In this document: positions 1-27,655 of the stretch, piece after piece | Layout: the number at the start of each line of letters is the position of its first letter | Position numbering within the stretch: the stretch's first letter is position 1 | Origin: Candidatus Kapaibacterium sp. | GTDB lineage: Bacteria; Bacteroidota; Ignavibacteria; Kapaibacteriales; UBA2268 | Assembly: GCA_026390695.1 (NCBI GenBank) | Contig: JAPLFL010000101.1 | Span: forward strand, 3,674 to 67,673 | Direction of reading: 5' to 3' | DNA length: 64,000 nucleotides | Translations under genes and position numbers: made by a program | Notes under the pieces: model-generated | Told to the model about the DNA's origin: nothing | What the model saw: only the letters and a program-made list of their open reading frames with translations | The model's database searches: none

Positions 1-1110
1 ATTATAGCCGATGAATTGACTGAAATATCAAATAAATTCTCCGATCCTCGCCGTACTGAAATAGTTCGCGATGCTCAGGACTTTACTATTGAAGATATGA
101 TTGCCGACGAAGATGTGATTGTCACTATTACTCATCGTGGATTTATTAAACGCACACCTGTTTCCAATTACCGCCGTCAGAATAAGGGCGGACGTGGTGC
201 AAGCGGTGCCGGTACTCATGATGATGATTTCATCGAGCATGTATTTCAGGCTTCCACTCACCACTTCCTGTTGTTCTTTACTGACAGGGGCCGAGTTTTC
301 AGAGTAAAAGTTTATGATTTGCCCGAAGGAAGTAAAAATGCCAAGGGTCGATCACTTGCCAATGTGATTCAGAAAGATGCAGATGAAACCGTAACTGCAT
401 ATCTGCCGGTACGTGAATTTGATGAGACTCAGTTTATTATTATGGGTACACGAAACGGAACTATAAAGAAGACTGCTTTATCGGAATATCAGAATGTTCG
501 GGCTAATGGAATAATTGCTATTAATCTTGTCGAAGGTGATAGATTGATTGAATCTAAAATCACTGATGGCACCTGCGATATTATTCTTGGAACATCAAAA
601 GGTATTGCTTGCCGTTTCCGAGAATCAGATGTTCGTGCAGTCGGCCGGGCTTCAATCGGTGTGCGCGGTATATCGCTCGAAGGTGATGACAAAGTAATGT
701 CGATGGTTGTGATCAAACGTTCTGATTCTCAGATTCTTGTCGTTGGTGAAAATGGATACGGAAAACGTACAAAATATGAAGATTTCCGTTTAACCAAACG
801 TGGAGCTAAGGGCGTTATTTCAATGAATGTATCGGAAAAGACCGGTAAGGTTGTTGGAATGAAATCTGTGGTTGATACCGAAGATTTAGTTGTTATGACT
901 ACAAATGGCATAACGATTCGTCAATCTATAAGAGATATTCGCACAATTGGCCGCAATACTCAGGGAGTGAAACTTATCCGCCTCGATGCCGGTGACACGA
1001 TTGCCGATATTACACTTGTAACGCGAGAGGAAGATGAAGTGGAAGAATCAAACGGAACGGATAATGCACCTGAAATGTTTGAAGAAAGTGGACAGACAAC
1101 TCTTTTATAA
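1..1110 (+). CDS. gyrA: DNA gyrase subunit A, C-terminal (beta-pinwheel) domain. The 5' end of the gene lies before the window; the frame is open from base 1.
   Basis: The translation contains a GyrA-box-like QNKGGRG and repeated blade motifs (VxTxxGxxKR, GxGVKLIRL) typical of the GyrA/ParC CTD, followed by an acidic tail. The ORF is in frame with position 1. Confidence 0.8.
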   Translation: MIADELTEISNKFSDPRRTEIVRDAQDFTIEDMIADEDVIVTITHRGFIKRTPVSNYRRQNKGGRGASGAGTHDDDFIEHVFQASTHHFLLFFTDRGRVFRVKVYDLPEGSKNAKGRSLANVIQKDADETVTAYLPVREFDETQFIIMGTRNGTIKKTALSEYQNVRANGIIAINLVEGDRLIESKITDGTCDIILGTSKGIACRFRESDVRAVGRASIGVRGISLEGDDKVMSMVVIKRSDSQILVVGENGYGKRTKYEDFRLTKRGAKGVISMNVSEKTGKVVGMKSVVDTEDLVVMTTNGITIRQSIRDIRTIGRNTQGVKLIRLDAGDTIADITLVTREEDEVEESNGTDNAPEMFEESGQTTLL

Positions 1111-1175
1111 ATAAGGATTAAGAATTTAGAATTGTTGGAAATACAATAAATCCTACAAAGACTGCAAAATAATCT

Positions 1176-1444
1176 TGAGGCCGTCTCAAAACCCTCATTT
1201 CTGTCATTCCTGCGAATGAGACTGTGTGAAAACACGAAATATTCACGTATCTGTCATTCCCGCGAATGCGGGAATCCCCTTCCATGGCGCAATTGGGGAT
1301 TCCTGCATTCGCAGGAATGACAAGAAAAGGTAGTTTTCACACAGTCTCGAATGCAGGAATCCCCTAAAGTGGCACTGGAAGGAGATTCCTGCATTCGCAG
1401 GAATGACATTGTTGTTAAATATGAGGCTTTTGAGACAGCCTCAT
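1176..1444. repeat. MITE-like palindromic element cluster with a GTCATTCC(T/C)GCGAATGC(A/G)GGAATCCCC core in inverted pairs. It is bounded by ~22-bp inverted termini, TGAGGC(C/T)GTCTCAAAA(C/G)CCTCA.
   Basis: Direct reading shows arms at 1253-1280 and 1296-1322 that are reverse complements. The termini at 1176-1197 and 1423-1444 are inverted copies. The same family recurs at 3327, 3683, 13930, 20921 and 63424. Confidence 0.8.
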
Positions 1445-1452
1445 TTTTTTTT
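1423..1452 (+). terminator. Rho-independent terminator after gyrA, formed by the right terminus of the repeat element.
   Basis: The stem TGAGGCT/AGCCTCA has an 8-nt loop and is followed by a T9 run at 1445-1453. Confidence 0.6.
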
Positions 1453-1463
1453 GGTTATAACTC

Positions 1464-1718
1464 TTAATAATCCCAATATTCTTTACTCAATCTAATAATC
1501 TCATCCAACTCAGCTTTTGTATCGGTTTCACCAAATACAAATGAAGAACAAATATAGTCCCAGTCACTTGAAGTAAGATTATAGAGTTTCTTGGCTATTA
1601 ATATTTCCAGTTCTGCACGGATTAAGTCCAAATCACGCTCGGAATCTACTTCTATATTTAATTCCTCCCCACAAGTCAGAAGTTTCTTCTGATTTGGAGC
1701 AAGAGAAATTACAAGCAT
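1464..1718 (-). CDS. Hypothetical small acidic protein (84 aa). Its start overlaps the rsmI stop (ATGA).
   Basis: ORF-track only; it is translationally coupled to the upstream rsmI and has no recognisable motif. Confidence 0.35.
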   Translation of the reverse strand: MLVISLAPNQKKLLTCGEELNIEVDSERDLDLIRAELEILIAKKLYNLTSSDWDYICSSFVFGETDTKAELDEIIRLSKEYWDY

Positions 1719-2392
1719 TACAGATTTTTGACTTTTTCAAGTACTACAACAAATTCACCTTTTATTTGCTGTCGTTTTTTTAGGGTTATCAGGCATTCTC
1801 CTATGGTTCCTCGGATAAATTCTTCATGAAGTTTGGTCAGTTCCCGTGCTATACAGATTTTCCGATCGGATCCGGCTGCTGCACATAGTTCTTCTAATAA
1901 TTTCATTATGCGGTGAACTGATTCAAGCATAATTACGGTGTGGTCTTGTTTGATGCAATTTCTGATAAAAGTCTGACGACCTTTTTTTTGAGGTGGAAAA
2001 CCGAGAAAGATGAACGAATCAATTGCAAGTCCGCTCGCTATTAATGCAGTCAGTATTGATGAGGCTCCCGGAATAGGAATTACTCTAATATCACTCTCAA
2101 TGGCTTTATGCACTAATCTGTATCCGGGATCGGAAATACAGGGTGTGCCTGCATCGGAAATCAAGACAACGCTTTTTCCTGCTTTTAATTCTGTGATTAT
2201 TGAATCAGAGCGACTGTCCTCATTATAATCGTGGTAAGAAATAAGTTTTTTCCCGATTATATTCAGAGCCTTTAATAATATCCCGCTCGACCGTGTATCT
2301 TCGCAGGCTATCAAATCGACATTTTTCAAAATATGATAAGCCCTGAAACTGATGTCGCTTAGATTACCAATGGGAGTTGCCACCAAATACAA
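1718..2392 (-). CDS. rsmI: 16S rRNA (cytidine1402-2'-O)-methyltransferase RsmI (tetrapyrrole-methylase fold).
   Basis: LVATPIGNLSDIS...IACEDTR...SDAGTPCISDPG motifs are characteristic of RsmI, and the length (224 aa) fits. Confidence 0.88.
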   Translation of the reverse strand: MYLVATPIGNLSDISFRAYHILKNVDLIACEDTRSSGILLKALNIIGKKLISYHDYNEDSRSDSIITELKAGKSVVLISDAGTPCISDPGYRLVHKAIESDIRVIPIPGASSILTALIASGLAIDSFIFLGFPPQKKGRQTFIRNCIKQDHTVIMLESVHRIMKLLEELCAAAGSDRKICIARELTKLHEEFIRGTIGECLITLKKRQQIKGEFVVVLEKVKNL

Positions 2393-2519
2393 AGCATTGA
2401 TGATATTTTCTTTAATCTCGATATTAATTCCTTAAGATTTTGTAATTTTGTAAATGTAAGTTTAATCAGTGATAACGAGATAAACTCAGGAATATTTTAT
2501 TAAAATTATGAAAAAATAA

Positions 2520-3263
2520 ATGCCAGTAAAAGTAATTACAATAGATTTTTGGAATACCTTGTTCGATTCGAGTGCCGGAACCGAACGGAACACATATCGC
2601 CGCCAGTCATTGGTTAAGGAAATAAAGAAACTGAATGCCGAATTAAGTGAAATTGAGTTTAATAGTGCAATGGAGGCATCATGGGCTTTTTTTAATGATA
2701 ATTGGCTCAATCACAGCCGTACACCTGAGCCAAGCGAAACGGTGAAATTTTTTATGGACTTTCTACATTTAGATTTCACAGCCGAGCAATTTGATAAAGT
2801 TGTTTGGAATTTTGCAGAATCTGTGCTGGTTTTTCCACCTAAATTAATTGATGGAGTTCCTCAAGCACTCGAAAGTTTATCTTCAAAATTTAAATTGGGA
2901 TTGATTTCGGATACTGGATTTTCTCCCGGAACTGTATTGCGTGAGCTGATGAAAAGAACTAATATTTATCAATATTTTTCAGCATTTAGTTTTTCTGATG
3001 AAACCAAAGTGTCCAAACCGCATCCGAAAGCCTATCTTACAGTTTTAAATGAGTTGGAATGCAATCCTGAAGATGCTGTCCATATTGGCGACATTGCTCA
3101 GACTGATATTAAAGGAGCAAAAAATTTATCAATGAGAGCTATTCGGTTCATTGGCGACCAAACTTCAATGGTTCTAAAAAATACTGACATACAAATAGAA
3201 GCTGACTGGGAAGCAGAATCCTGGCATGAAATAGTAAAAATTATTAACGAAATTACTAATTAA
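2520..3263 (+). CDS. HAD-superfamily hydrolase.
   Basis: Motif I-like ITIDFWNTLF; motif III lysine (SKPHPK); motif IV HIGDxxxxD; length 247 aa. Confidence 0.65.
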   Translation: MPVKVITIDFWNTLFDSSAGTERNTYRRQSLVKEIKKLNAELSEIEFNSAMEASWAFFNDNWLNHSRTPEPSETVKFFMDFLHLDFTAEQFDKVVWNFAESVLVFPPKLIDGVPQALESLSSKFKLGLISDTGFSPGTVLRELMKRTNIYQYFSAFSFSDETKVSKPHPKAYLTVLNELECNPEDAVHIGDIAQTDIKGAKNLSMRAIRFIGDQTSMVLKNTDIQIEADWEAESWHEIVKIINEITN

Positions 3264-3326
3264 AATATTTTAATATTTTATTGAATAATTCTCCGATTTC
3301 ATTTGCGAAATGATATTTATCATTAA

Positions 3327-3459
3327 TGAGACTATCTCAAAAGCCTCATTTCTGTCATTCCTGCGAATGCAGGAATCCCCTAAAGTGGCACTGGCAGGAG
3401 ATTTCTGCATACGCAGGAATGACATTTTTGTTAAATATGTAGCTTTTGAGACAGCCTCA
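3327..3459. repeat. Single copy of the MITE-like palindromic element, with TIR-like ends TCTCAAAAGCCTCA / TTTTGAGACAGCCTCA.
   Basis: Same core as at 1253-1430; followed by a T-run at 3463-3470. Confidence 0.75.
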
Positions 3460-3682
3460 TTAGTTTTTTTAAAAATTATTTCGTAATTTGTAAATTGGTG
3501 TTTTATTTTTTTAAGTAATTTTGGATTTACATTTGATTAATTCTGATTTCATAGTAAAAGTTGCTCTGGAAGCTGTGTACGAATCAATTGGTAAAATTCA
3601 TTATTCGATTGTTCATAGGCAAGCAAAGAAAATCTATGAAGTAGATGACAAACAAATAACTTATATCGTTTCCTACTTTAAG

Positions 3683-3920
3683 GCTGTCATTTGTGCGTAT
3701 GCAGGAATCCCCAATTGCGCCATGGAATGGGATTCCCGCATTCGAGTTTGTGTGAAAACTGCAATTTCTTGTCATTCCTGCGAATGCAGGAATCCCGCTA
3801 AAGTGGCACTGGAAGGAGATTCCTGCATACGCAGGAATGACATTCTATTGGAATTTTCGTGTTTTCACACAGTCTCATGCGCGGGAATGACAATAATTCC
3901 TAATTCTTTAAGGAAATGAT
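3683..3920. repeat. Composite copy of the palindromic element. Its flanks (CGTTTCCTACTTTAAGGCTGTCATT ... TTAAGGAAATGATAT) are shared with the copy at 20921-21255.
   Basis: Direct comparison of 3663-3700 with 20921-20960, and of 3885-3920 with 21212-21255. Confidence 0.7.
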
Positions 3921-3962
3921 ATTATATATAAAATTGAGATTTAACAATTAAGCATATACATT

Positions 3963-6900
3963 ATGAAAAAACTATTCCTGTCAAAAAAAGTAATTCTTCT
4001 TGCATTGATTTTATCCGGTATTACTTTTATAGTTACGATCGGCTCAACTTATATAAATTATATCACAGCCTCTGATACTGTTCTGAAGGCATTGTTAGAT
4101 GATGCGGAAAGTGATAAAAACTTTGTTGAAACACTTTACAATAAAGGTTTCTCAAGAGACTCAATATTATCAGTTTTAAATCAAGTTCATAAATCCGTAA
4201 GAATGATAGGTAGTACAGGGGAATTAGTTATAGGTGAATTGTATAAGGATTCAATAAATTTTATAGTGAGAAAGACCATAAATGGAGATGGTGAAAAAAT
4301 TAGTGTTAGCCTTAAATCCAATAAAATAGCAGGTCCGATGCGCTCGGCAATGTCAAAAAAAACTGGGAATTATCAGGGCTTGGATTATCGAGGAAGTAAA
4401 GTCTTTGCAGGTTACACATATTTTGCACCATTTCAATGGGGAATTGTTTCCAAAATAAGTGTAGAAGAAGTACGGGAGCCATTTATTTATTCCCTTTTAT
4501 ATTGCTTTATACCAGCCATTTTATTAACTTTTTTTGGGTCTTTACTTTTTATAAAAGTAACAAATCCGATGATAACGGCTATCAGAAAAAGTGAGGAAAA
4601 TTTATCGATTACTTTGAATTCAATTGGTGACGGCGTTATCTCTACCGATGAGCATGGCATGGTTGTACAATTAAATCCTGTAGCCGAGAAACTCTGTGGT
4701 TGGAAAATTGATGAAGCTCGTGGAAAACCTCTTAACGAAGTTTTTAAAATTATTAATGCTGAGACAAGGTTGATAGTTGAAAATCCTGTTAAAAAAGTGA
4801 TTGAAAATGGACAGATTGTTGGGCTCGCCAATCATACAGTTTTGATTTCCAGGGACGGGAAGGAATATCAAATAGCTGATAGTGCAGCTCCTATAAAGGA
4901 TGTAGCAGGAAGAATCAATGGTGTTGTCATGGTATTTTCCGATGTAACGGAAAGATATGCAGCAGAATACGCTTTACGCAAAAGTCAAGAGCAATTAAAT
5001 ATTATTTTTCAAGAATCACCTGTCGCATCTGTACTGGTTGGAATGGATAAAAAATTTATAAAATGTAATTCTGCATTCAGCAATTTTTTGGGATATTCGG
5101 AAATTGAAATAATTGGAAGGACTATTGAGGAAGTAACTTATTCTGAAGATGTTGAAATCGCAATGCCTGAAATGAAGCTGTTAGTGGAAGGGAAAATAAA
5201 AACAGTAAAAGCAGAGAAACGTTATGTGAGAAAGAATGGAGAACTTATATGGGGTGAGATAAAAATCTCCCTGGTACATGATGAGAACAATAAACCCTTA
5301 TATTTCTTACCGATTATTCATAATATTTCTGATAGGAAAAAAGCAGAACTTGAATTGAAAGAAAGTGAAGCTACTTTCCGTGAATTATGGAACGCAACAA
5401 TTGAGGGAATTACTATACACGACAGAGGTATTATTCTTAAAGCAAATGATGCGATGTGCCGGATGTTTGGCTATGAACCTGAGAATGTAATAGGAATGTC
5501 CTTGCTAAAATTTGCAGCACCTGAAGTGCACGATTTTCTTCGTAAAACTATGGCAACAGATAGGGATGGACATTTTGAATTACCATGTATAAAAGCAGAT
5601 GGCACCAAAATGATTGTCGAAACATTTTCAAAGATGATCAGATATAAAGGTAAAGACCTTAGAATGGCTGCCAACCGTGATATAACCGAACGGAAGAAGG
5701 CAGAAGCAGCTGTTTATAAAGCTAAGTTGGAATGGGAGGCAATTTTTCACGGGATATCTCATCCGACGATAATTTTAGGGCCGGACAATAATATTCTTGA
5801 AATCAATGAAGCTACCGAAAGAATGCTTGGCAAGAATATATCCGAACTTAAGGATCTCAAATGTTGGGAGATTTTTCATGGTAATGCCCATTCCGAGCGA
5901 CCTTGCGGATGCCCGTTCACGAAATTACTTGATAGCAATTCGAGCCAAACTGAGGAGATGGAAATTGAAGCCGTAAGTGGTACTTTTATAGTTTCCTGCA
6001 CTCCAATTTTCGATGCAGGAGGAAAATTAGAAAAAGTTGTTCATATTGCCACTGAAATAACAGAAAGAAAAAAGGCAGAGAATGCTTTGAAAGCAAGTGA
6101 ACTAAGGCTCCAACTAATTCTTGAGAATATGCCGATCCTCCTTAATGCTTTCGATGATAACGGTAATATAATCGTCTGGAATAAAGCGTGTGAAGAAGCA
6201 ACAGGGTATAGTGCAGTTGAAATAATTAATAATCCACAGGCTTTAGAACTTTTATATCCGGATATTGATTATAGAAATAATGTGATGAAGGATATTGCTG
6301 ATCCCAAATATTCAGATAATGTTTATGATTTAGTGAAGAAAAATAAAGAAATTCGGACAATAGAATGGTTCGATATTTATAAAAAGATCCGTATTCCGGG
6401 TTGGCCATCTTGGGGACTTGGTCAGGATATCACTGATAGATTGCGTGCCGAAGAATTATTAAGACAAAGCGAGGAGAAGTTTAGAAATATTTATGAAAAT
6501 TCTCAGGAAGGAATCTTCCAAACGAGGGCTGATGGCTCTTATATTTCTGTTAATACAGCTTTAGCTAAGATGTATGGTTATGATTCTTCCGAGGAACTTA
6601 TGGATAATAGAGCCAACATAGCATTTGATTCTTATTTTAACCCAGAAGACCGTAATCAATTTCTTAAAATTATGGAGGAAAAAGGATTAATTCGGGGTTT
6701 TGAATATCAGGTTAAGCATCGCGATGGCCATAATATGTGGTTTTATGAAGATGCAAAAGCTATTAAGGATGAAAATGGGAACCTTGAATATTTTGAAGGA
6801 TTTGTTGTTGATATTACTGAGAAAAAGTTAGCGGAAGAGGCACTGAAGGCAAGTTATGCTGATTTAAGAAGAGCTGAACAAGTCTCTAAAATAGGTTATT

Positions 6901-8828
6901 GGACATTGTATTTGAATGAAAAAATTATGTCCTCCTCGGAAAATGCCAATAAAATTTATGGATTTGAGAATAATCAAAATTCTTTATCAGAAATTCAAAA
7001 AGTAGTTTTACCGGAATTCAGACAATATCTTGATTCTGCATTGCAGGAATTTATCGTAAATGGTAAACCTTATGATACCGAATATAAAATTAGAAGAATA
7101 ACAGATAATAAAATCATAGATATTCGTTCAGTGGCGGAATTTGATCGTTCGAAAAATATTATTTTCGGTGTAATTCAGGATATTACTGAACGTAAAGATT
7201 ATGAAGCAGCAATAATAAAAAGCGAAAAATTCCTAAAAGAAACACAAAAAATTGCTAATCTCGGTACTTATAATATGGATATTATTTCGGGTTTGTGGGA
7301 GTCTTCTGCTATTCTTGATGAGATTTTCGGAATAGATGCCAGTTTCGAGAGAACAGTCGAAGGTTGGGCTTCAATTCTGCATCCGGATTGGCGTAAATTA
7401 ATGACAGATTATTTGATAAATGAAGTATTTGGAAAGGGTGTTACTTTTGATAAGGAGTATGTTATTATTAGAATTAACGACAGGTCGGAACGATGGCTTC
7501 ATGGAATAGGCGAACTTAAATTTAATGAAAATCATGTACCTATAATAATGATCGGAACCATTAGAGATATTACTGAGAAAAAGCTTGCAGAGGAATTACT
7601 AATTGATAAAAATCATGAAATTGAAGCACAATATGAAGAATATATGCAACTTAACGAACAGCTTCGTAAAACAAATTATGAACTTGAAATAGAAAAAGCT
7701 CATGCCGAAGAAAGCGAAAAACTTAAAACCTCATTTCTCCAGAACATGTCCCATGAAATCAGAACTCCGCTTAATGGGATTATGGGATTCTCCGGATTAT
7801 TGAGAGATTATGATGATCTAAGTCAGGATGAAAGCAAAGACTATATCAATATTATTGTCAATTCATCTAATAGATTATTGGCAATAGTGGACGATGTGCT
7901 GGATATTTCAAGAATAGATTCAAACTCTTTGTCAATTAATAAAAGTGATTTTCTTTTGACTGAATTGTTGCATTATTATCAGTCATTGTATAATTCTCAA
8001 ATTCGATCCAAGGGACTTAACTTTATTATTAAAATTCAAGATAAATGCTCGGAATTGAAATTATTGACTGACAAAGATAAATTAAGCCAAATAATTACTA
8101 ACTTAATGAATAATGCAACAAAATTTACTCACAAGGGTGAAATCGAACTTGGAGTTAATAGAGACAAAGATAAATTAAATATATATGTCCGTGATACTGG
8201 AATCGGAATAAAAGGGGAATATCTTGAAAAAATATTTGATCGATTCTGGCAATATGAGGCCTTTGTTGAGGAATTCTACGGTGGAACCGGATTGGGTCTC
8301 TCTATTTCCAAAGGATTGGCTGAACTTTTAGGGCTGCAAATTTCTGTTGAATCAGTTTTTGATCAAGGAACTACTTTTACATTGACTTTTAATCCAGATT
8401 CTTTTATTGAAAAAAATGATAGTTTTACTATAAATAAAACAATTACAAGAGAATATTTTGATTTATATGGTTTAAAAGTTCTAATTGTTGATGATGAAGA
8501 AACAAATTATTTGTATTTAAAATCATTGCTTAAAAGGATCAATTCGCACATTCACTGGGCTCGCAATGGTCAGGAAGCAATTGACATGTGCCAGCTAAAT
8601 TCTTATGATTTGATTCTTATGGATTTGAAAATGCCGGTTATGAACGGTTTCGATGCAACAAGAAAAATTCGTGAGTTTGATAAAAATATTTTTATTATAG
8701 CGCAAACGGCCTACACTCAGGGCGAAGAAAAAGAGCATGCTATTGATGCCGGATGTGATGAATTTATATGTAAACCGATTGAGCGAGAGAATCTATTTTA
8801 TTTGATTAGAGAAAAATTAAGGAAATGA
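3963..8828 (+). CDS. Hybrid sensor histidine kinase/response regulator. It has an N-terminal periplasmic Cache-like sensor between two TMs, about 7 PAS domains, HisKA, HATPase_c and a C-terminal receiver.
   Basis: H-box SHEIRTPLNGIMGFSGLL; G-boxes DTGIGI and GGTGLGLSI; receiver VLIVDDEE...DLILMDLKMPVMNG; repeated PAS cores. A signal/TM segment opens the protein, and a second TM at ~aa 175-195 bounds the periplasmic sensor before the first PAS. Confidence 0.9.
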   Translation: MKKLFLSKKVILLALILSGITFIVTIGSTYINYITASDTVLKALLDDAESDKNFVETLYNKGFSRDSILSVLNQVHKSVRMIGSTGELVIGELYKDSINFIVRKTINGDGEKISVSLKSNKIAGPMRSAMSKKTGNYQGLDYRGSKVFAGYTYFAPFQWGIVSKISVEEVREPFIYSLLYCFIPAILLTFFGSLLFIKVTNPMITAIRKSEENLSITLNSIGDGVISTDEHGMVVQLNPVAEKLCGWKIDEARGKPLNEVFKIINAETRLIVENPVKKVIENGQIVGLANHTVLISRDGKEYQIADSAAPIKDVAGRINGVVMVFSDVTERYAAEYALRKSQEQLNIIFQESPVASVLVGMDKKFIKCNSAFSNFLGYSEIEIIGRTIEEVTYSEDVEIAMPEMKLLVEGKIKTVKAEKRYVRKNGELIWGEIKISLVHDENNKPLYFLPIIHNISDRKKAELELKESEATFRELWNATIEGITIHDRGIILKANDAMCRMFGYEPENVIGMSLLKFAAPEVHDFLRKTMATDRDGHFELPCIKADGTKMIVETFSKMIRYKGKDLRMAANRDITERKKAEAAVYKAKLEWEAIFHGISHPTIILGPDNNILEINEATERMLGKNISELKDLKCWEIFHGNAHSERPCGCPFTKLLDSNSSQTEEMEIEAVSGTFIVSCTPIFDAGGKLEKVVHIATEITERKKAENALKASELRLQLILENMPILLNAFDDNGNIIVWNKACEEATGYSAVEIINNPQALELLYPDIDYRNNVMKDIADPKYSDNVYDLVKKNKEIRTIEWFDIYKKIRIPGWPSWGLGQDITDRLRAEELLRQSEEKFRNIYENSQEGIFQTRADGSYISVNTALAKMYGYDSSEELMDNRANIAFDSYFNPEDRNQFLKIMEEKGLIRGFEYQVKHRDGHNMWFYEDAKAIKDENGNLEYFEGFVVDITEKKLAEEALKASYADLRRAEQVSKIGYWTLYLNEKIMSSSENANKIYGFENNQNSLSEIQKVVLPEFRQYLDSALQEFIVNGKPYDTEYKIRRITDNKIIDIRSVAEFDRSKNIIFGVIQDITERKDYEAAIIKSEKFLKETQKIANLGTYNMDIISGLWESSAILDEIFGIDASFERTVEGWASILHPDWRKLMTDYLINEVFGKGVTFDKEYVIIRINDRSERWLHGIGELKFNENHVPIIMIGTIRDITEKKLAEELLIDKNHEIEAQYEEYMQLNEQLRKTNYELEIEKAHAEESEKLKTSFLQNMSHEIRTPLNGIMGFSGLLRDYDDLSQDESKDYINIIVNSSNRLLAIVDDVLDISRIDSNSLSINKSDFLLTELLHYYQSLYNSQIRSKGLNFIIKIQDKCSELKLLTDKDKLSQIITNLMNNATKFTHKGEIELGVNRDKDKLNIYVRDTGIGIKGEYLEKIFDRFWQYEAFVEEFYGGTGLGLSISKGLAELLGLQISVESVFDQGTTFTLTFNPDSFIEKNDSFTINKTITREYFDLYGLKVLIVDDEETNYLYLKSLLKRINSHIHWARNGQEAIDMCQLNSYDLILMDLKMPVMNGFDATRKIREFDKNIFIIAQTAYTQGEEKEHAIDAGCDEFICKPIERENLFYLIREKLRK

Positions 8829-8887
8829 CATTAGTTTATAAAGTTCATCAAGTGATGAAATGAAAAATTGAAAAATAGGGAGTAGTT

Positions 8888-9910
8888 ATGAGTTATCATA
8901 TTGATTATAAGAGGATTAATTGGTTAAGAAAACCAAGGAATTTGAAACTAATTCTTACTATACAACTAAGTGTAATTCTTATTTTGATAATTATAATGAC
9001 AAATTGCTTTAAAAAGCCACAAGAACCTATCCGAATCGGAATTAGCCCATGGCCTGGCTATGAACCTATGTTTTTGGCAAGAGAAAAGGGATACTTTTCC
9101 GAAAAAGATGTCAAGTTAATCGATTATACTTCAGTTACAGGCCAATCAAGAGCTTTCGTTAATGGAGCTGTCGATGCTGCTGCTATGACTCTTGATGTTG
9201 CAACCAAATTAAGAGAAAGCGGAGTCGATCTTAGAATTGTACTTGTCTTTGATGTTTCAAACGGTGGGGATGTTATTCTCGCAAATCCTGTATATCAAAC
9301 CTTAAAGGATCTAAAAAATAAAAAAATCGGTGTTGAGACAACTTCAATCGGTGATTATATGATTTCACGTGCTTTGGAATTATCCGGCATGAAACTTACG
9401 GATATTAAGGTTGTTCCTTTGGAAATTTCCGAACATGAAAGAGCATTTAAAGAAAAACGAGTTGATGCTATTGTTACTTATGAACCTGTCAAAACCAAAT
9501 TAATTGCTTACGGGGCTAATAAAATATTTGATAGTTCGCAAATACCGGGAGAAATAGTTGATGTTCTTGTTGTAAGAACTGATTATTTGAAAAAAGGAGA
9601 TAAACAATTAATCTCACTTTTAAATGGATGGTTCAAAGCATTAGGAGCACTAACGACAGATAGCTTAAACTCAATTCGTTTTATGGCTGCAAGGGAGCAA
9701 ATCTCCGATAAAGAATTTATTTTATCTTTGGAAGGGTTAACGATACCCAATATGCAAAGTAATATAATGCAGCTTGGTGGAGCAAATCCCGGACTGCTTG
9801 CACCTGCAAGACATCTTGAGAGAATAATGTATGAAAAGAAGCTCATCGAAGGTCGTGTGGACTTAGTTAAACTTTTTGATGCCTCATTTATTGAAAGGTT
9901 GACTAAATGA
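8888..9910 (+). CDS. Periplasmic substrate-binding-protein-like sensor partner (NMT1/SsuA/TauA-like fold). Its stop overlaps the start of the downstream kinase.
   Basis: N-terminal TM anchor; IRIGISPWPGYEP...KIGVETTSIGD pattern is typical of NMT1/SsuA-type SBPs; ATGA overlap at 9907. Confidence 0.55.
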   Translation: MSYHIDYKRINWLRKPRNLKLILTIQLSVILILIIIMTNCFKKPQEPIRIGISPWPGYEPMFLAREKGYFSEKDVKLIDYTSVTGQSRAFVNGAVDAAAMTLDVATKLRESGVDLRIVLVFDVSNGGDVILANPVYQTLKDLKNKKIGVETTSIGDYMISRALELSGMKLTDIKVVPLEISEHERAFKEKRVDAIVTYEPVKTKLIAYGANKIFDSSQIPGEIVDVLVVRTDYLKKGDKQLISLLNGWFKALGALTTDSLNSIRFMAAREQISDKEFILSLEGLTIPNMQSNIMQLGGANPGLLAPARHLERIMYEKKLIEGRVDLVKLFDASFIERLTK

Positions 9911-12663
9911 AAATATTAACTCTATTCCCATTACGCATCACAATACCATTATTTTTATTAATAACAGCGCTGGTTCTACTTGTTTTAACCGTTGAAAATA
10001 ATCTTCGTATATCTAATAAATATCTTGAAGAAAATGGAATTACTACACATATTCATGATATGACTATTTATCAGGGTATTTTCAATAATCTATTCCGTAA
10101 AGGCGATATTGAAGGCATTCAAGCTATTATAGCAGATATGGGATCGGAACCAAATTTAATTCATATTGCTTTGTTTGATCAATCTAACAAGATACTTTAT
10201 AGTAATGACTCTCATATTATCGGTAAATTAGTGCACGAAGTATTTGAAACAATTAACTTACAAACAATAGCGGATTGCAGGAAAAGCGGACGCGGGATTG
10301 TTTCGCTTTCAAGCACAGGTGATACTATTTCTGCCAACTATCCAATACTTATACACCCTCAAATTGAAGAAATGAAGCAAACTTCAGTTGCCGTGCTCCA
10401 CGTTTGTGTTGATCTATCAACTCCAAAAGCAAAGCTAAGATATGAAACATGGCAGCAACACTTTGTTTATATTATATATTCTATCATTATCTTCGTTATT
10501 CTCGGCTACTTATTACGTTTTGTTGTTTCCAAAAGAGCTGCCGAGCTTGTTGCAACTTCCCATAATTTCTCCGAAGGCGATCATTCCGTCCGCTCAAAGC
10601 TGCAAGGCAATGATGAACTTGCCCGAATTGCTTTTGCAATGAATCAAATGTTCGATCAAATCATTGCAAACCAAAACAAACTTAGCGAAAGCCAGCTTAA
10701 ATATCGGCAATTATTTGATAGCATCATGGATTCCTTCGTCCGAATGACGATTGACGGTAATATATTAGAATGTAACCCTTCTTTTGAGCTTATGTTGGGC
10801 TATTCACACGATGAAATCACAAATCTAACAAGTAAATCCATTACCCCTGATAAATGGTGGAAGATTGATTCCTCTTTCTTGCATGAAGAAATTCTTCCAT
10901 TCGGTTTCTCATCTGTTTATGAGAAAGAACTAATCAAGAAAGACGGCTCCGTAATCCCTGTTGAGCTTCGCACATTCAGTATAAGCAACGCTGTAAGCGG
11001 ACAATTATCGCTTTGGAGCATTGTTCGCGATATTACAGAGCGGAAAAAGACTGAACTAATTCTTCAGGAAAGTGAAACAAAGCTCCGTGCCATTTTTGAA
11101 AGCTCACGTTACGCTATCGGTGTTTCACTAAAAGGTATCCATGTCCTTGCAAACCCGTCCTATCTCAAATTATTCGGCTATGATAACATTGATTCCCTTA
11201 TCGGAACCTCTATTTTGGATAATATTGCTCCTGATTTCCAAAATGATATTATGCAAAAGATTCAATTAAGAGCAGCAAACAAGAATTTACCTTCTTTTTA
11301 CGAAACTCGTGGCCGACGAAACGATGGACATGAGTTTGATATGGAAGTTAATGTTTCGTCATACAATCTCCAAAACGAAAAATTCACTCTCGTTACTATT
11401 CGCGACATCACCGAACGCAAGAATTCCGAAGAATTACTCTTAGAACAGAATAAAAATCTTGAGGCGCAGTATGAAGAATACATGATTCTCAATGAAAAAC
11501 TTCGTATTATCAATTTTGATCTCGAAGCAGCAAAAGGAAAAGCCGAAGAAAGCGACAAATTAAAAACCGCATTCCTGCAAAATATTTCTCATGAGATTCG
11601 CACACCTCTCAATGGCATCATCGGATTCTCTAATTTACTTAATGAAGCTGATGTCTCCAAAGATGAAATCACAGAATATTCCTGCGTAATCAAACAAAGC
11701 GGTAAAAGATTAATTGAAATCGTTAATAATGTTATTGATATTTCTAAAATAGAAACAGGAATGATCGAATTAAACATCCAATCCTTTTCTCTAAATGCAC
11801 TTATCGAAGACCTATATGAATTTTTCCTGCCGATGGCAGAACTAAAAAGCCTCAAATTGAATTATATCATTCCCCAAAATAATGAAAGCTCAATTGTATC
11901 GGATGAATCCAAAATTGTTCAGATTCTTACCAATCTTATAAATAATGCAATCAAATTTACATTTGCCGGATCCATTAATTTTGGTTATAAAATCATAGAT
12001 GAACTTATACTTTTCTTCGTCGAAGACAGCGGAATCGGGATACCGGACGGTATGAACAATAGAATATTTGAACGATTCGTTCAGGTTGACCTTTCAATCA
12101 CCAGAGGATACGAAGGAGCCGGTCTCGGACTTGCAATAAGTAAAGGTCTTGTGGAATTATTGGGTGGTTATATTAGTTTTAAATCTGAACTAAACAAGGG
12201 AACTAAGTTTGAATTTTCAATTCCCTATTCCCCAATTCAGAAAACAAATAAACAAGAATCTCTGACAAAAGAAATAAGTATAGAATCCAATATTGAAGCT
12301 AAGATTTTGATTGCCGAAGATGATTTTACAAGTTTTAGGCTATTACAAACAAGTTTAAAAAATAAGAATTACGAACTTATATTAGCTGAAAATGGCCAAA
12401 AAGCTGTTGAAATGGTATTACATAATTCGGATATCGATATTGTATTTATGGATATAAGAATGCCAGTAATGGATGGCTTTGAAGCAACGAGACAAATCAA
12501 AAAATTACGCCCTCAATTGCCTGTTATAGCTCAGACAGCTTATGCTTTTAGCGAAGAAAAGATGCAAATAATGACAGCAGGATTTGACGATTACATTTCA
12601 AAACCTATTGATTTAAATAAAATTAAATTCCTAATCGAGAAATTCGTAAATAAACAAAAGTAA
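9907..12663 (+). CDS. Hybrid sensor histidine kinase with TM sensor region, HAMP, about 3 PAS domains, HisKA, HATPase_c and a C-terminal receiver.
   Basis: H-box SHEIRTPLNGIIGFSNLL; DSGIGIP and GAGLGLAISKG; receiver ILIAEDD...DIVFMDIRMPVMDGFEATRQIKK. Confidence 0.9.
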   Translation: MKILTLFPLRITIPLFLLITALVLLVLTVENNLRISNKYLEENGITTHIHDMTIYQGIFNNLFRKGDIEGIQAIIADMGSEPNLIHIALFDQSNKILYSNDSHIIGKLVHEVFETINLQTIADCRKSGRGIVSLSSTGDTISANYPILIHPQIEEMKQTSVAVLHVCVDLSTPKAKLRYETWQQHFVYIIYSIIIFVILGYLLRFVVSKRAAELVATSHNFSEGDHSVRSKLQGNDELARIAFAMNQMFDQIIANQNKLSESQLKYRQLFDSIMDSFVRMTIDGNILECNPSFELMLGYSHDEITNLTSKSITPDKWWKIDSSFLHEEILPFGFSSVYEKELIKKDGSVIPVELRTFSISNAVSGQLSLWSIVRDITERKKTELILQESETKLRAIFESSRYAIGVSLKGIHVLANPSYLKLFGYDNIDSLIGTSILDNIAPDFQNDIMQKIQLRAANKNLPSFYETRGRRNDGHEFDMEVNVSSYNLQNEKFTLVTIRDITERKNSEELLLEQNKNLEAQYEEYMILNEKLRIINFDLEAAKGKAEESDKLKTAFLQNISHEIRTPLNGIIGFSNLLNEADVSKDEITEYSCVIKQSGKRLIEIVNNVIDISKIETGMIELNIQSFSLNALIEDLYEFFLPMAELKSLKLNYIIPQNNESSIVSDESKIVQILTNLINNAIKFTFAGSINFGYKIIDELILFFVEDSGIGIPDGMNNRIFERFVQVDLSITRGYEGAGLGLAISKGLVELLGGYISFKSELNKGTKFEFSIPYSPIQKTNKQESLTKEISIESNIEAKILIAEDDFTSFRLLQTSLKNKNYELILAENGQKAVEMVLHNSDIDIVFMDIRMPVMDGFEATRQIKKLRPQLPVIAQTAYAFSEEKMQIMTAGFDDYISKPIDLNKIKFLIEKFVNKQK

Positions 12664-12690
12664 TTAGTTCATTTAAATCACCAAACCACC

Positions 12691-13908
12691 ATGAAAACAG
12701 AAAATATGACTTATGAAGAGCTTCTAAAATATAAATTAGCTCTCGATTCCTCAAGCGAATCCATATTCATCACTGCCCCGAATGGAATTATAACATACAT
12801 AAATCCTGCGTTCACCGATCTTTACGGTTATACCCCCGATGAAATAGTCGGCAAGCATACCCCAATTATTCTGAAGGGCGAAAAATCAAGTAAATTATAT
12901 AAAAAATTTTGGAAAAACATTGTTGAAGGAATGGCAGACAAATCCGAATACATGAATAAGACAAAAGATGGGAAGATATTGATTATTGAATCAACAACAA
13001 ACCCTTTTCTAAACGAGGAAAATCAATGCTTAGGGTTTATTTGCGTTCAAAGAGATGTGACAGACCGTAAAGATAGAGACGAAGAATACTCTTATTTGAT
13101 TTCGGAGCTAACTGTGTCAAGGGATATGATTGAAACAAACCTGTTTCAGACTAATGAATTGATAGAACAACTGTCTGAAACGCAGGAAGCCCTTGAAAAA
13201 ACTAATTCGGAGAAAGATAATTTCTTTTCAATTATTGCGCATGACTTGAAAAATCCGCTTGGAAACTTCAGAAATGTTACTGAGCTTTTGTCAGATTCTT
13301 ATGCAGACTTTTCGGAAAAAGATAGAATTGAGTTTATCGGATTAATGAACGATTCAGCCAAAAATATATATGCTTTACTCGAAAATTTATTAGAGTGGTC
13401 ACGTTCGCAAAGAGGGCAAATTCCGTTTCAGCCATTGTTATTTAATTTAAAAATGATGTCAATAGATATATTTAAATTAATGAAGCCGTCGGCAGATGCA
13501 AAAAATATAGAATTAATAAATCATATTCCGGTTAATTATGAGATAAATGCCGATCTAAATATGATAAATACAGTAATTAGAAATTTAATTTCCAATGCAA
13601 TAAAATTTACTCCGAATGGAGGAATGATTGAATTGGGATTAAAAAATATAAATGATAATAAGATTATGACGGAAGAATGTATATATATAAGGGATAACGG
13701 ATTAGGTATGAATAAGGAAATGTGTAATAAGTTATTCCGAATTGATACAAACGTAACTACTCCCGGAACAAATGCTGAAAAAGGAACAGGATTAGGGCTT
13801 ATATTATGTAAGGAATTTATTGAAAAGCACGGCGGAAAAATCTGGGTTGAAAGTGAGGAAGGCAAAGGAAGCACCTTTTATTTTACGATACCTAAAAGCA
13901 TAAAGTAA
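12691..13908 (+). CDS. Cytoplasmic PAS-domain sensor histidine kinase.
   Basis: PAS (ITYINPAFTDLYGYTPDEIVGK), H-box AHDLKNPLGNF, HATPase RNLISNAIKFTP...GTGLGLILCKEFIEKHGGKIWVES. Its kinase core is a close paralog of that at 14684-16429. Confidence 0.85.
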   Translation: MKTENMTYEELLKYKLALDSSSESIFITAPNGIITYINPAFTDLYGYTPDEIVGKHTPIILKGEKSSKLYKKFWKNIVEGMADKSEYMNKTKDGKILIIESTTNPFLNEENQCLGFICVQRDVTDRKDRDEEYSYLISELTVSRDMIETNLFQTNELIEQLSETQEALEKTNSEKDNFFSIIAHDLKNPLGNFRNVTELLSDSYADFSEKDRIEFIGLMNDSAKNIYALLENLLEWSRSQRGQIPFQPLLFNLKMMSIDIFKLMKPSADAKNIELINHIPVNYEINADLNMINTVIRNLISNAIKFTPNGGMIELGLKNINDNKIMTEECIYIRDNGLGMNKEMCNKLFRIDTNVTTPGTNAEKGTGLGLILCKEFIEKHGGKIWVESEEGKGSTFYFTIPKSIK

Positions 13909-13929
13909 ATTATTAAAAAGCCAATCAAT

Positions 13930-14200
13930 ACTTCAATAAAGCCTGTCATTCCTGCGGAAGCAGGAATCCCCAAAATAAACGAACCTGTCATTTCTGCAAA
14001 TGCAGGAATCCCCAAAATAAACAAGCCTGTCATTCCTGCGGATGCAGGAATCCCCATAATGAATAAACCTGACCATGCAACATAAACATGAAGCCAAAGA
14101 GAGAATCAAAAATGGGATTCCTGTATGCACAGGAATGACAGAAAAAATAGTGCTGTCATTCCTGCAGATGCAGGAATCCCCAAAATGAATAAACCTGACC
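13930..14200. repeat. Cluster of at least 5 copies of the GTCATTCCTGC(G/A)GA(A/T)GCAGGAATCCCC palindrome, including three 42-bp tandem units.
   Basis: Direct reading: CCTGTCATTCCTGCGGAAGCAGGAATCCCCAAAATAAACGAA repeats three times, followed by two inverted copies. Confidence 0.75.
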
Positions 14201-14377
14201 TTATAATAATGAAAAAAATAGCAAAACAAGGAAAAACAAATAAAATATATAAATAAATAAATATAAAAATGAAAATAACAGTCAATAGCATGCAATAGAA
14301 AAAACATAAATATATAATAATAAACAACTAATGAAGACAGGAAAAAATAAGAAATACAAAGGAAATCCAATAAATGA

Positions 14378-14526
14378 GCGCAGCGGAATTGTATTTAAGG
14401 ACAGCGGATTAGTATTTAAGGACAGCGGATATGTATTTAAGGACAGCGGATTTGTATTTAAGCGCAGCGGATTTGTATTTAAGGACAGCGGATTAATAAT
14501 TTAATGGAGCGGATTTGTATTAAAAG
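14378..14526. repeat. Tandem direct repeat, 7 x 21 bp, unit GACAGCGGATTTGTATTTAAG. It lies ~160 bp upstream of the GAF-PAS kinase gene.
   Basis: Seven consecutive near-identical 21-mers were read directly from the sequence. Confidence 0.85.
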
Positions 14527-14683
14527 AACTAATAATAAAAATAATGGATATAAAAACAAAAAATATGGAAATGGAATATAATAATAGAAATATAAAAAAA
14601 CAATAGTAAAAGAATAAGGAATAATAGATACAGAAAAAGAAAAAAATATACAGTTTATATACAAAATAAAAAGGGTAAGAATC

Positions 14684-16429
14684 ATGAAAAACATTATTAG
14701 CAGAAGAGAAGAAGAAAGAATAGCGGCATTAAAAAGCTATAATATCTTAGATACCTCTCCTCAAAAGATCTATGACGACATTACATTATTAGCATCTCAG
14801 ATTTGTGACACACCAATCTCTCTTATATCATTAATTGATGAAGATAGACAATGGTTTAAATCGAAGCAAGGTGTAGATGTGGAATCCACACCACGAGAGA
14901 TCGCATTTTGCGCACGGGCTATCGAGACTCCAGAGGAATTATTCATCGTTTCGAATGCAATGGAGGATGAACGATTTAAAAATAACCCATTAGTAACGGA
15001 ATACCCTTATATTAGATTTTATGCGGGCGCTCCACTTGTAACAAATGACGGTTATGCTTTAGGAACCCTCTGCGTTATAGATCGGGAGCCGCGTGTACTA
15101 AAACCGAAGCAGTTAGAAGCATTAACGGCGCTGCGCAATGGAATAGTAACTGCCTTTGAACTTGAACGGACTAACAGGTTTCTAAAAGAATCCGAAGAGA
15201 AGCAAAAGCAATTATTAGAGGAAACAGTGGAAAAAGACAATGCCACAAGATCAATTATCGAGTCTGCACCGAACGCAATGATTCTTATAGAAGCAAATGG
15301 AGTCATTAGAATGGTAAATATACAAACGGAAAAGATATTCGGCTATTTACGAGATGAAATTATTGGTAAGCAAATAGAAATATTACTCCCTCCGGAACAT
15401 TCTGACATCTTTATAAAGCTAAGAGAAACCTTTATAACCAAACCTTCTCACAAGGCAATAGGGTATGGCAGAACATTATATGGAATAAAGAAGGACGGAG
15501 TACGGTTCCCGATTGAAATAGGATTAAATCCTCTTTTAAATAAGGGGAAATTATGGATATTAGTATCAGTTATCGACATTAGTGAGCGGAAAAACCACGA
15601 TGAAAAGCAAAAAATATATCTTGAAGAATTAAAAGAGAAGAATGGAATCATAGAGCGCGGCTTAAATGAGAAACATGTATTAATCGGAGAACTGACTGAA
15701 GCTAAAGAAAAACTGGAAACTCTCAACGCAACAAAAGATAAGTTCTTTTCTATTATAGCGCATGACTTAAAAGGGCCATTAGGCAGCTTTAAACAAGTAA
15801 CTGAACTGTTAGCAGAATCATATTCCGAGTTTCCAGAGGAAGATAAAGTTGAATTTATCTTATTAATGAGTCAAGAATCAAAGAATTTATACTCTCTTCT
15901 TGAGAATTTACTTGAATGGTCACGGTCGCAGAGGGGGAATATCCCGTTTAACCCAGAGAAATTCAATTTAAAGATGATGTCAATCGAAATTATCAAACTT
16001 ATGAAGCCAACTGCCGAGAAAAAAAGGATTGAACTTATAAATCATATTCCCATTTCCTTAGATATAATAGCGGATGAAAACATGATAAACACAGTTATCC
16101 GAAATTTAATATCGAATGCCATTAAGTTTACACCCGATTGTGGAAGTATAGAACTGGGAATACGAGCTAAAACCACTGAGGAATTCAGTTCATCGGAGGA
16201 TTGTATTTTTATAAAGGACTCCGGGCTTGGTATGAGCCTTGAAACACGGGATAAATTATTCAGAATCGATACTCAGGTGACAACTCTCGGAACGAATTCG
16301 GAGAAAGGAACGGGTTTGGGATTAATTTTATGTAAGGAATTTATTGAAAAGCATAGTGGGAAAATCTGGGTAGAGAGTGAGGAAGGGGAGGGGAGTACAT
16401 TTTATTTCACAATACCAAGAAGAAAATGA
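14684..16429 (+). CDS. GAF-PAS sensor histidine kinase, paralog of the 12691-13908 kinase.
   Basis: N-terminal GAF-like region; PAS; H-box AHDLKGPLGSF; HATPase RNLISNAIKFTP...GTGLGLILCKEFIEKHSGKIWVES, near-identical to the 12691 gene. Confidence 0.85.
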   Translation: MKNIISRREEERIAALKSYNILDTSPQKIYDDITLLASQICDTPISLISLIDEDRQWFKSKQGVDVESTPREIAFCARAIETPEELFIVSNAMEDERFKNNPLVTEYPYIRFYAGAPLVTNDGYALGTLCVIDREPRVLKPKQLEALTALRNGIVTAFELERTNRFLKESEEKQKQLLEETVEKDNATRSIIESAPNAMILIEANGVIRMVNIQTEKIFGYLRDEIIGKQIEILLPPEHSDIFIKLRETFITKPSHKAIGYGRTLYGIKKDGVRFPIEIGLNPLLNKGKLWILVSVIDISERKNHDEKQKIYLEELKEKNGIIERGLNEKHVLIGELTEAKEKLETLNATKDKFFSIIAHDLKGPLGSFKQVTELLAESYSEFPEEDKVEFILLMSQESKNLYSLLENLLEWSRSQRGNIPFNPEKFNLKMMSIEIIKLMKPTAEKKRIELINHIPISLDIIADENMINTVIRNLISNAIKFTPDCGSIELGIRAKTTEEFSSSEDCIFIKDSGLGMSLETRDKLFRIDTQVTTLGTNSEKGTGLGLILCKEFIEKHSGKIWVESEEGEGSTFYFTIPRRK

Positions 16430-16550
16430 GAATTACTTATTTAATAGAATAAAATTATTTTAAATTGCATTGCTATTTTCATGTGAAAAAACATTAATTT
16501 TGTATTTCCGTTTTATTGAAATATTTTAACTTTATATATAAGGAACAGCC

Positions 16551-20920: not shown

Positions 20921-21255
20921 GATCGTTTCCTACTTGAAGGCTGTCATTCCTGCGTATGAGCCTGTGTGAAAACATCAATTTCTTGTCATTCCTGCGCATG
21001 CAGGAATCCCCTGATTGGCACTGGAAGGAGATTCCCGCATTCGAGCCTGTGTGAAAACATCAATTTCTTGTCATTCCTGCGCATGCAGGAATCCCCTGAT
21101 TGGCACTGGAAGGAGATTCCCGCATTCGAGCCTTGTGAAAACATCAATTTCTTGTCATTCCTGCGCATGCAGGAATCCCCTGATTGGCACTGGAAGGAGA
21201 TTCCCGCAGTGCGGGAATGACAAGAATTCCTAATTCATTAAGGAAATGATATAAA
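20921..21255. repeat. Three tandem ~85-bp copies of the palindromic element, with a composite flank ending TTAAGGAAATGATAT.
   Basis: Unit starts at 20962, 21047 and 21131; the core is GTCATTCCTGCGCATGCAGGAATCCCC. Confidence 0.8.
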
Positions 21256-26860: not shown

Positions 26861-27007
26861 GGTTTAATGATCCCTTAAAACAGTTTATTGATCTCTTGAA
26901 ACAGTTTATTGATCTCTTGAAACAGTTTATTGATCTCTTGAAACAGTTTATTGATCTCTTGAAACAGTTTATTGATCTCTTGAAACAGTTTATTGATCTC
27001 TTAAACG
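26861..27007. repeat. Tandem direct repeat, 7 x 21 bp (CAGTTTATTGATCTCTTGAAA), ~80 bp upstream of the 25856-26782 gene.
   Basis: Read directly: six perfect copies plus one degenerate copy. Confidence 0.9.
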
Positions 27008-27321: not shown

Positions 27322-27410
27322 ATTAATATAATTATATTTCACTTTATATTTTATATAAAAAGTGTTCAGAATGACTGAAAATGAGGTTAGATTGTAAGGA
27401 AAATAAGAAA

Positions 27411-27655
27411 ATCCCCATTGAATCCCATTTAGGAAAGGGGGAAACTTGGAAAATCCCCCTTAGTCCCCCTTTTTCAAAGGGGGAAACTTGGAAAAACTAC
27501 CTTAATCCCCCTTTTATAAAGGGGGAAACTTGGAAAATCCCTCTTAATCCCCATTTAGGAAAGGGGGAAACTTGGAAAATCCCCCTTAATCCCCCTTTTT
27601 CAAAGGGGGAAACTTGGAAAATCTCTCTTGATTCCCATTTAGGAAAGGGGGATTG
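27411..27655. repeat. About 6 tandem 41-42-bp units, each encoding a CCCCC-UUUUCAAA-GGGGG hairpin plus AACTTGGAAAA. The array is at the 3' end of the Nramp-related gene.
   Basis: Read directly; GC-clamp palindromes stand out in the AT-rich context. Confidence 0.85.

Follow-up and report, generated by a model that had tools for sequence, protein, structure and literature searches.

Nested SRM-like hairpin repeats in a Candidatus Kapabacteria genome and their probable association with Ssn nucleases

The Neisseria Transformation Sequence (NTS; CGTCATTCCCGCGMAVGCGGGAATCYRG) encompasses the classical dRS3 repeat and is included in a general class of hairpins termed "Ssn-related motifs" (SRM) (Chenal et al., Nat Commun 2025, PMC11893778). 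SsnA, a 94-aa GIY-YIG protein (cd10448), binds this hairpin only as single-stranded DNA (ssDNA) and cuts a few nucleotides upstream of it; cleavage depends most on the three nucleotides before the palindrome, and binding on the C after it. SRM lie near 71% of ssn homologues, and Ssn is encoded by 81% of genomes with >200 SRMs (PMC11893778). Here we describe a family of hairpin repeats in a 64,000-nt stretch of DNA (contig JAPLFL010000101.1, hereafter the window) from Candidatus Kapaibacterium sp., a metagenome-assembled genome (MAG); our counts of repeats, ssn genes and transposases refer to this window. We consider it probable that the repeats are SRM/NTS-like hairpins that have expanded in this Candidatus Kapabacteria genome, are linked to Ssn, and are packaged as inverted doublets inside larger shells. 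The core hairpin has already been described; what is added here is a new lineage and a new detail, the nested insertion of elements into hairpin loops.

Two other systems share parts of this design. The NIMEs of Neisseria are mosaics of dRS3-type hairpins and interchangeable spacers, and the hairpin centre of dRS3 is the insertion target of the Nf prophage. The role of dRS3 as a recombinase target is also mentioned in PMC11893778. The window differs in its modules and host, and in that the inserted DNA is itself a hairpin-bearing element of ~130 nt with inverted termini. REPIN-RAYT systems and BIMEs (Bertels & Rainey; Nunvar et al.) resemble the window repeats in their inverted hairpin doublets, mosaic clusters and mostly extragenic positions, and in being thought to act as single-stranded hairpins. 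In contrast, no RAYT was found in the window, a 6-nt duplication accompanies insertion here, and the gene neighbouring the hairpin elsewhere encodes a GIY-YIG nuclease.

The core hairpin and its likeness to NTS

The core unit is an oriented 28-nt hairpin, TGTCATTCCYGC-nnnn-GCRGGAATCCCC (type sequence of the main window hairpin, TGTCATTCCTGC), consisting in order of a 5' TGTC, an 8-bp stem (ATTCCYGC/GCRGGAAT), a 4-nt loop and a 3' CCCC. Eighteen intact and at least four split copies are present in the 64 kb, compared to none in shuffled sequences. The window consensus 28-mer TGTCATTCCTGCGAATGCAGGAATCCCC has 18 matches (≤5 mismatches), starting at 1252, 1295, 1381, 3353, 3397, 3685, 3770, 3815, 13944, 13986, 14028, 14113, 14154, 20984, 21069, 21153, 63431 and 63477, and these fall at every locus that an earlier note, made from the sequence alone, had listed as a copy. 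Likewise, the arm GTCATTCCTGCGAATGCAGGAATC was found 17 times (≤3 mismatches) and not once in 100 dinucleotide-preserving shuffles. The proposal in that note of a family resembling miniature inverted-repeat transposable elements (MITEs) is partly right: the family is high-copy, palindromic and without coding capacity, it occurs on six contigs, and inverted termini and a duplication are found. The repeat loci sum to 1,537 nt, or 2.4% of the window, at ~0.36 hairpins per kb. Such a density lies within the range of dRS3 in Neisseria and is not unprecedented; the description of it as far above known repeat families is not supported.

When canonical copies are folded in silico as ssDNA, they form the 8-bp stem and 4-nt loop at -6.5 to -9 kcal/mol, with z-scores of -4.2 to -5.7. 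Among 19 distinct copies, pairing is retained in 95.4% of stem cells, and two stem positions show a compensatory change from C:G to T:A. Because these positions change on both sides, it is the hairpin itself, beyond its mere sequence, that is maintained. G2 and C4 of the hairpin do not vary, and conservation is at least 90% at T3 and at the C following the palindrome. No Rfam family was assigned to the repeat at gathering thresholds; under relaxed thresholds, generic long-hairpin miRNA models appeared as weak candidates far under their cut-offs and were rejected.

The window hairpin agrees with NTS in its GTC, its stem, the length of its loop and the C that follows. Both are oriented hairpins of ~28 nt of the form GTCATTCC-YGC, loop, GCR-GGAATC, with GTC before and C after the palindrome; both occur at high copy number and frequently in inverted pairs; and both are associated with small GIY-YIG genes, here at metagenome loci and as a relic in the window. 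Judged by its sequence, the window hairpin belongs to the SRM class and retains the positions critical to SsnA in Neisseria, namely the GTC that precedes the palindrome and the C that follows. There are also differences. The window comes from a Kapabacteria MAG with a GC content of ~35%, most window copies carry a compensatory T:A stem pair that the published pattern misses, the 3' tail reads CCCC instead of CYRG, and an intact ssn was not found in the window. Furthermore, the shells with inverted termini, the loop-targeted nesting and the 6-nt duplication of the window are not described in PMC11893778.

Shells, nested insertions and arrays

The usual arrangement of the hairpins is as inverted doublets inside elements of ~130 bp with terminal inverted repeats. 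Doublets with a spacing within ~130 nt start at 1252/1295, 3353/3397, 3770/3815, 14113/14154 and 63431/63477. The elements are 129-133 nt long and without coding capacity, and end in inverted termini of either 22 nt (T1) or 15 nt (TIR2). The earlier note had the whole unit bounded by ~22-bp inverted termini. This is true of two loci, 1176-1444 and 3327-3459, which account for all four occurrences of the T1 sequence (TGAGGCYGTCTCAAAASCCTCA); at the other five listed loci the ends differ from T1 or are missing, and other shells are present. By eye, the terminal sequences of T1 (GAGGCTGTCTCAAAAG) and TIR2 (GAGACTGTGTGAAAAC) agree at 13/16 positions, and we therefore regard the T1-bounded X-type and the TIR2-bounded Y-type as sub-families of a single type of element. 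The third shell, Z, extends from ATCGTTTCCTACTTTAAGGC to ATTCCTAATTCTTTAAGGAAATGATAT, has ends unlike T1 and TIR2, and is found at 3665-3922 and 20922-21252.

An intact X-type element of 133 bp, X2, lies at 3327-3459 and reads T1, TTTC, SRM(+), 19-nt spacer, SRM(-), 13 nt, T1'. The locus at 1176-1444 is a composite, X1::Y1, in which the left hairpin loop of an X-type element (T1 termini plus SRM doublet) is interrupted by a Y-type element. From left to right, the T1 left terminus TGAGGCCGTCTCAAAACCCTCA (1176-1197, +) is followed by the 5' half of the split SRM hairpin (TGTCATTCCTGCGAATG; 1202-1218, +), then by the 129-nt Y1 (1219-1347, +), the 3' half of the split hairpin (1348-1364), the right SRM hairpin of the X1 doublet (1381-1408, -) and the T1 right terminus (1422-1443). 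Y1 has 15-nt inverted termini (AGACTGTGTGAAAAC) at 1219-1233 and 1333-1347 and its own SRM doublet at 1252-1279(+) and 1295-1322(-), and the hexamer CGAATG stands on either side of it, at 1213-1218 and 1348-1353. Excising 135 nt (1219-1353, the 129-nt element plus the 6-nt duplication) restores the exact consensus hairpin, and X1 after this excision aligns without gaps to the intact X2, with 123/133 identical positions (92%). The nested palindrome that the earlier note had seen in these loci is also found on folding them whole (1170-1455, z -13.9; 3320-3470, z -9.6).

The same anatomy recurs in the composite Z1::Y2 (3665-3922). Here, an SRM hairpin at 3685-3712(+) is followed by a split SRM(-) at 3728-3744 and 3876-3892, interrupted by the Y-type element Y2 (3745-3875, -), which carries a doublet at 3770-3797(+) and 3815-3842(-). 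Excision of 3745-3881 restores a perfect hairpin. Y2 has the opposite orientation to Y1, and Y1 is identical to the reverse complement of Y2 at 109/132 positions. Shells have inserted repeatedly into the loops of resident hairpins, with duplication of 6 nt of the loop. The search for target-site duplications suggested by the earlier note gave 6-nt flanks at the nested Y insertions that match at 6/6 for Y1 (CGAATG/CGAATG) and 5/6 for Y2 (CATTCG/CATGCG); the 6-nt flanks of X1 and X2 match at only 4/6 and 5/6, are AT-rich, and represent one boundary choice among few copies. All of these figures come from a handful of insertion junctions, with boundaries picked after inspection. A fixed relative orientation of insert and target hairpin was considered and rejected: it held at the loci of X1::Y1 and Z1::Y2 (loci 1 and 3) but was contradicted by the first junction of locus 5, where the hairpin is forward and the insert has its "10-nt side first".

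We put forward tentatively the possibility that the ~130-nt elements are actively mobile, preferring the 4-nt loop of another SRM hairpin as a target, in either orientation, and duplicating its six central nucleotides. If true, the footprint would provide the first trace at sequence level of the way in which Ssn-associated repeats multiply. An extruded hairpin or cruciform would then have to be cut in a staggered manner at its tip, either by an Ssn-family nuclease together with host repair or by another partner enzyme.

Later recombination has produced tandem arrays and mosaics. The SRM array at 13942-14181 consists of three direct copies (13944, 13986 and 14028), followed by an inverted pair (14113-14140, -, and 14154-14181, +). 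The direct copies, spanning 13942-14071 with a period of 42 bp (Tandem Repeats Finder), have no T1 or TIR2 termini; the earlier claim that arms occur as inverted pairs is correct for most of them but not for these three. The Z2 shell (20922-21252) contains the 3 x 85-bp tandem that the earlier note had recognised (20958-21208 in Tandem Repeats Finder, 3.0 copies, 99% matches), each unit being made up of TIR2, 10 nt, SRM, a spacer and half an SRM. The left Z hairpin is split by a Y-type end (20943-20959), the right one is intact (21197-21223), and the tandem interior is without closing halves. Pure nested insertion was rejected as the origin of this array, since the closing half-hairpins and right-hand termini are missing; unequal recombination between direct copies of TIR2 accounts for it best.

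Association with ssn and candidates for the mobilising enzyme

A locus at 49085-49252(+), previously taken for a variant copy of the family, turned out to be a different object. Two inverted SRM-like arms (TGTCATTCCGAACGGAGTGAGGAATCCAG and its partner; 49088-49113, +, and 49227-49252, -) enclose AGGAGG, which resembles a ribosome-binding site, and MKKRYVYILASPKNG, to which ...ALIEEMNPLWKDLSK is joined in a different frame. When a hidden Markov model (HMM) of seven Ssn sequences was run against the six-frame translated window, both best hits were the pieces of this locus, the C-terminal one with an E-value of 9e-4 (HMM positions 71-93) and the N-terminal one with 0.15. It is therefore an internally deleted SRM-ssn-SRM unit, whose divergent arms keep the SRM flanks and have no stable fold. 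A padded 42-aa chimeric query derived from the relic retrieved only short protein fragments (≤74 aa), and a flavobacterial-type Ssn query retrieved Flavobacteriaceae-like proteins only. Among the matches of the chimeric query, a 57-aa protein from a Phycisphaerae MAG (P0127), annotated as GIY-YIG, has an Ssn N-terminus joined straight to an Ssn C-terminus, a deletion like that of the window relic, and many others are C-terminally truncated ssn fragments.

The hairpin accompanies ssn genes in unrelated metagenome contigs. Contigs were scanned for the exact pattern GTCATTCCYGCNNNNGCRGGAATC, giving at least 120 stretches that total 603 kb. Among the matches listed, GC content ranges from 30 to 71%, an inverted SRM-like partner lies ≤130 nt away for 66/156 hairpins, and intact Ssn-like open reading frames (ORFs) are present at eight hairpin loci, as judged by a small HMM built from three adjacent ORFs. 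At four loci (L097, L155, L175 and L177) the Ssn-like ORF starts immediately after the hairpin.

SRM-like hairpins also occur in relatives of the window organism (L004, L002 and L020), with a T1-like sequence beside a half hairpin in L020. The window GyrA has its nearest matches in Ignavibacteria/Kapabacteria MAGs, at ≤73% identity. In L004 (4225-4345) and L002 (~4417-4440), whose GyrA proteins are 71% and 67% identical to that of the window, an SRM-like hairpin or doublet is found downstream of gyrA, as in the window, and that of L004 sits within a T1-like inverted shell, AGGCTTCTGAA...TTCAGAAGTCT. The element may be old and conserved, or insertion may have struck the same sort of site more than once. 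One T1 copy (1176-1197, GAGGCCGTCTCAAAACCCT) is one or two bases apart from a Neisseria DNA-uptake-sequence terminator (GAGGCCGTCTGAAAACCCTT; metagenome locus L178, 9314-9333). As the remaining T1 copies resemble it less, the likeness is probably a coincidence. A Neisseriaceae origin, with T1 as an uptake sequence, was rejected in view of the GC content of ~35%, the Ignavibacteria/Kapabacteria affinity of GyrA and the presence of only four T1 copies; the T1 consensus, GAGGCTGTCTCAAAAGCCTC, also differs from the uptake sequence.

In the mechanism that we favour, an Ssn-family GIY-YIG nuclease encoded by the genome would recognise the hairpins in DNA exposed as single strands by replication, repair or transformation, and would nick that DNA just upstream of the hairpins; the elements would derive from SRM-ssn-SRM units by internal deletion. 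Several observations weigh against this assignment. To our knowledge, GIY-YIG nucleases do not integrate DNA or make target-site duplications, and a 6-nt duplication with inverted termini fits a DDE transposase better. The six-frame Ssn HMM search found no intact ssn gene in the 64-kb window, and the divergent, non-folding arms of the relic link ssn to the genome, not the main hairpin type to ssn directly. In addition, the published SRM pattern, HGTCWYN(0-2)YYVSBRHN(0-5)WNVSBRGN(0-2)RNCYNB, matches just one of the 18 copies, that at 1252. Ten copies match once the two complementary C:G to T:A positions are relaxed, with 0.06 matches in shuffles either way. Since the published pattern misses copies with the compensatory stem change, SRM surveys probably undercount. 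Finally, for the Neisseria repeat on which SsnA acts, another group has assigned mobilisation to a RAYT transposase (bioRxiv 10.1101/2021.07.10.451892).

Other enzymes may thus be considered. Among ORFs of ≥100 aa in the window we found no IS200/IS605 TnpA/TnpB, the enzymes that the earlier note had suggested looking for, and no RAYT or any other transposase. An unlikely explanation, though the best of the alternatives, is that the repeats are ordinary MITEs of a DDE-type insertion sequence (IS), with T1 and TIR2 as transposase sites, the 6 nt as a target-site duplication and the SRM as inner ends or preferred target, Ssn being uninvolved in mobility. Inverted termini of 15-22 nt, related between T1 and TIR2 at 13/16, speak for it, as do the size (~130 nt) and non-coding nature of the elements and their 6-nt duplications (6/6 and 5/6 for Y; 5/6 and 4/6 for X, under one boundary choice). 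The parent IS would carry GAGRCTGTSTSAAAAS termini; however, neither such an element nor its transposase was found in the window. T1/TIR2 termini are missing from the Z-type loci and from the direct 42-bp array, and the few junctions have boundaries chosen post hoc. Moreover, the hairpin core occurs beside ssn genes across genomes of 30-71% GC among the matches listed, and hence is not private to one IS.

We rate as less likely still that the inverted doublets are REPINs, moved by a domesticated IS200/IS605-like Y1 transposase (RAYT) encoded elsewhere in the genome. Two inverted hairpins <130 nt apart are the very definition of a REPIN, the enzyme class is the one proposed in the earlier note, and the Neisseria repeat ATTCCCGCGCAGGCGGGAATC has been classed by Bertels et al. 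as the REPIN of a Group 2 RAYT (bioRxiv 10.1101/2021.07.10.451892). Yet the window ORFs of ≥100 aa include no Y1 transposase or RAYT, and the gene adjoining the hairpin in the metagenome loci is ssn-like. We know of no target duplication left by Y1 transposition, and the duplications at Y1 (6/6) and Y2 (5/6), the two inserted elements, argue against the Y1/RAYT "peel and paste" mode.

Static structural or regulatory hairpins (terminators or mRNA-stabilising structures), spread only by local duplication and recombination, are hardly credible: although one terminus is terminator-like, gene ends host most copies, an SRM-like hairpin also lies downstream of gyrA in L004 and L002, and the tandem arrays reveal active recombination, such a history is contradicted by the precise insertion of 129 + 6 nt into a hairpin loop, by copies on at least six contigs, by one copy within a coding sequence, and by the finding of just 2 terminator-like sites in 1000-4000, not above shuffles. 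With regard to the terminus concerned, the earlier note took it to double as the gyrA terminator. The T1 right terminus runs into a T-run (1422-1453, +), and a terminator-like hairpin plus T-run was found on the gyrA strand at 1421-1444; this is a consensus match only, 311 nt past the gyrA stop codon, and the T1 terminus may serve as the terminator.

Dispersal, database entries and the wider window

A repeat-derived peptide (3685-3919) retrieved six proteins in NCBI nr, encoded on six contigs (18-236 kb) of the same MAG. MCX6154842.1, one of the six, corresponds to the ORF in the window: NCBI annotates the Z1::Y2 stretch as this hypothetical protein (window 3533-3919). The retrieved sequences can be read as further mosaics of the same modules: P0004 is a paralogue of the complete X::Y composite, P0002 is a doubly closed nest, and P0003 has a T1 end beside a half hairpin. 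The family is therefore present genome-wide, beyond the window to at least these six contigs of the MAG, and the worry voiced in the earlier note that spurious ORFs from the repeats pollute protein databases is justified. In a second assembly of the organism, made up of short Logan contigs that stop at the repeats, contig L201 (SRR20698641, 1,983 nt; approximately window 1380-3365) ends on both sides in a T1 terminus plus hairpin, which indicates that the repeats fragment short-read assemblies.

A copy inside a coding sequence had also been proposed, correctly. The ORF at 62841-63962(-) encodes a GT4 glycosyltransferase (MCX6154883.1) with an in-frame insertion of ~40-46 codons at 63381-63518(-), which contains a decayed SRM doublet (63431-63458 and 63477-63504) and is translated as GIDANAEIP...GDFCICRNG. 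Nearly all of the best 150 GT4 homologues align as two pieces, skipping residues ~149-193, and a MAFFT alignment with eight of the closest (homologues being ≤50% identical) places a ~40-residue insertion, absent from all eight, in the linker between the two Rossmann domains. Both arms have lost the hairpin, as expected of an old copy now evolving as protein. In-frame insertion of palindromic repeats into genes is known from the Rickettsia palindromic elements, which the window case resembles in that such a repeat is tolerated in a coding sequence, here in an interdomain linker. The likeness noted is one of insertion habit, and the window has a single such case. Rickettsia is itself among the SRM-rich genera (PMC11893778).

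Other features of the window were noted in passing. Hairpin elements stand at several gene boundaries of a cluster of PAS/GAF sensor histidine kinases within 3963-20885 (3963-8828, 9907-12663, 12691-13908 and 14684-16429), in which two paralogues are partial duplicates, 72-75% identical at the DNA level over 230-300 nt. Intergenic tandem arrays with a period of 21 bp or its multiples (42, 63 and 84 bp) occupy 14381-14521, 26862-27006, 48211-48381 and 62292-62469, and a further array of this type lies inside an ORF (30784-30848). Each of the intergenic arrays has a unit of its own (CAGCGGATTTGTATTTAAGGA x6.7 and GTTTATTGATCTCTTGAAACA x7 are examples) and is just upstream of a gene start; that they have in common a period equal to two helical turns is striking. 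An Nramp transporter gene (27586-28956, -) is flanked, at 27407-27652 and 28936-29149, by 42-bp tandem arrays of another hairpin family, AATCCCCCTTTTTCAAAGGGGGA, unrelated to the SRM; one array overlaps the 3' end of the gene. A c-di-AMP riboswitch (RF00379; 40443-40580, 91.6 bits) precedes an amino-acid permease gene (40660-42642).

To conclude, the repeats described here break short-read assemblies, yield annotated "hypothetical proteins" and have once become a 40-46-residue insertion in a real enzyme. If they are indeed SRM/NTS-like hairpins linked to Ssn, as we consider probable, then a system experimentally studied so far in Neisseria and Wolbachia would be massively expanded in an uncultured Kapabacteria lineage. 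The literature is divided on the enzyme that acts on the identical Neisseria repeat, Ssn or a Group 2 RAYT; the nested insertions, with their loop target and 6-nt duplication, offer a testable footprint for how such repeats may spread.

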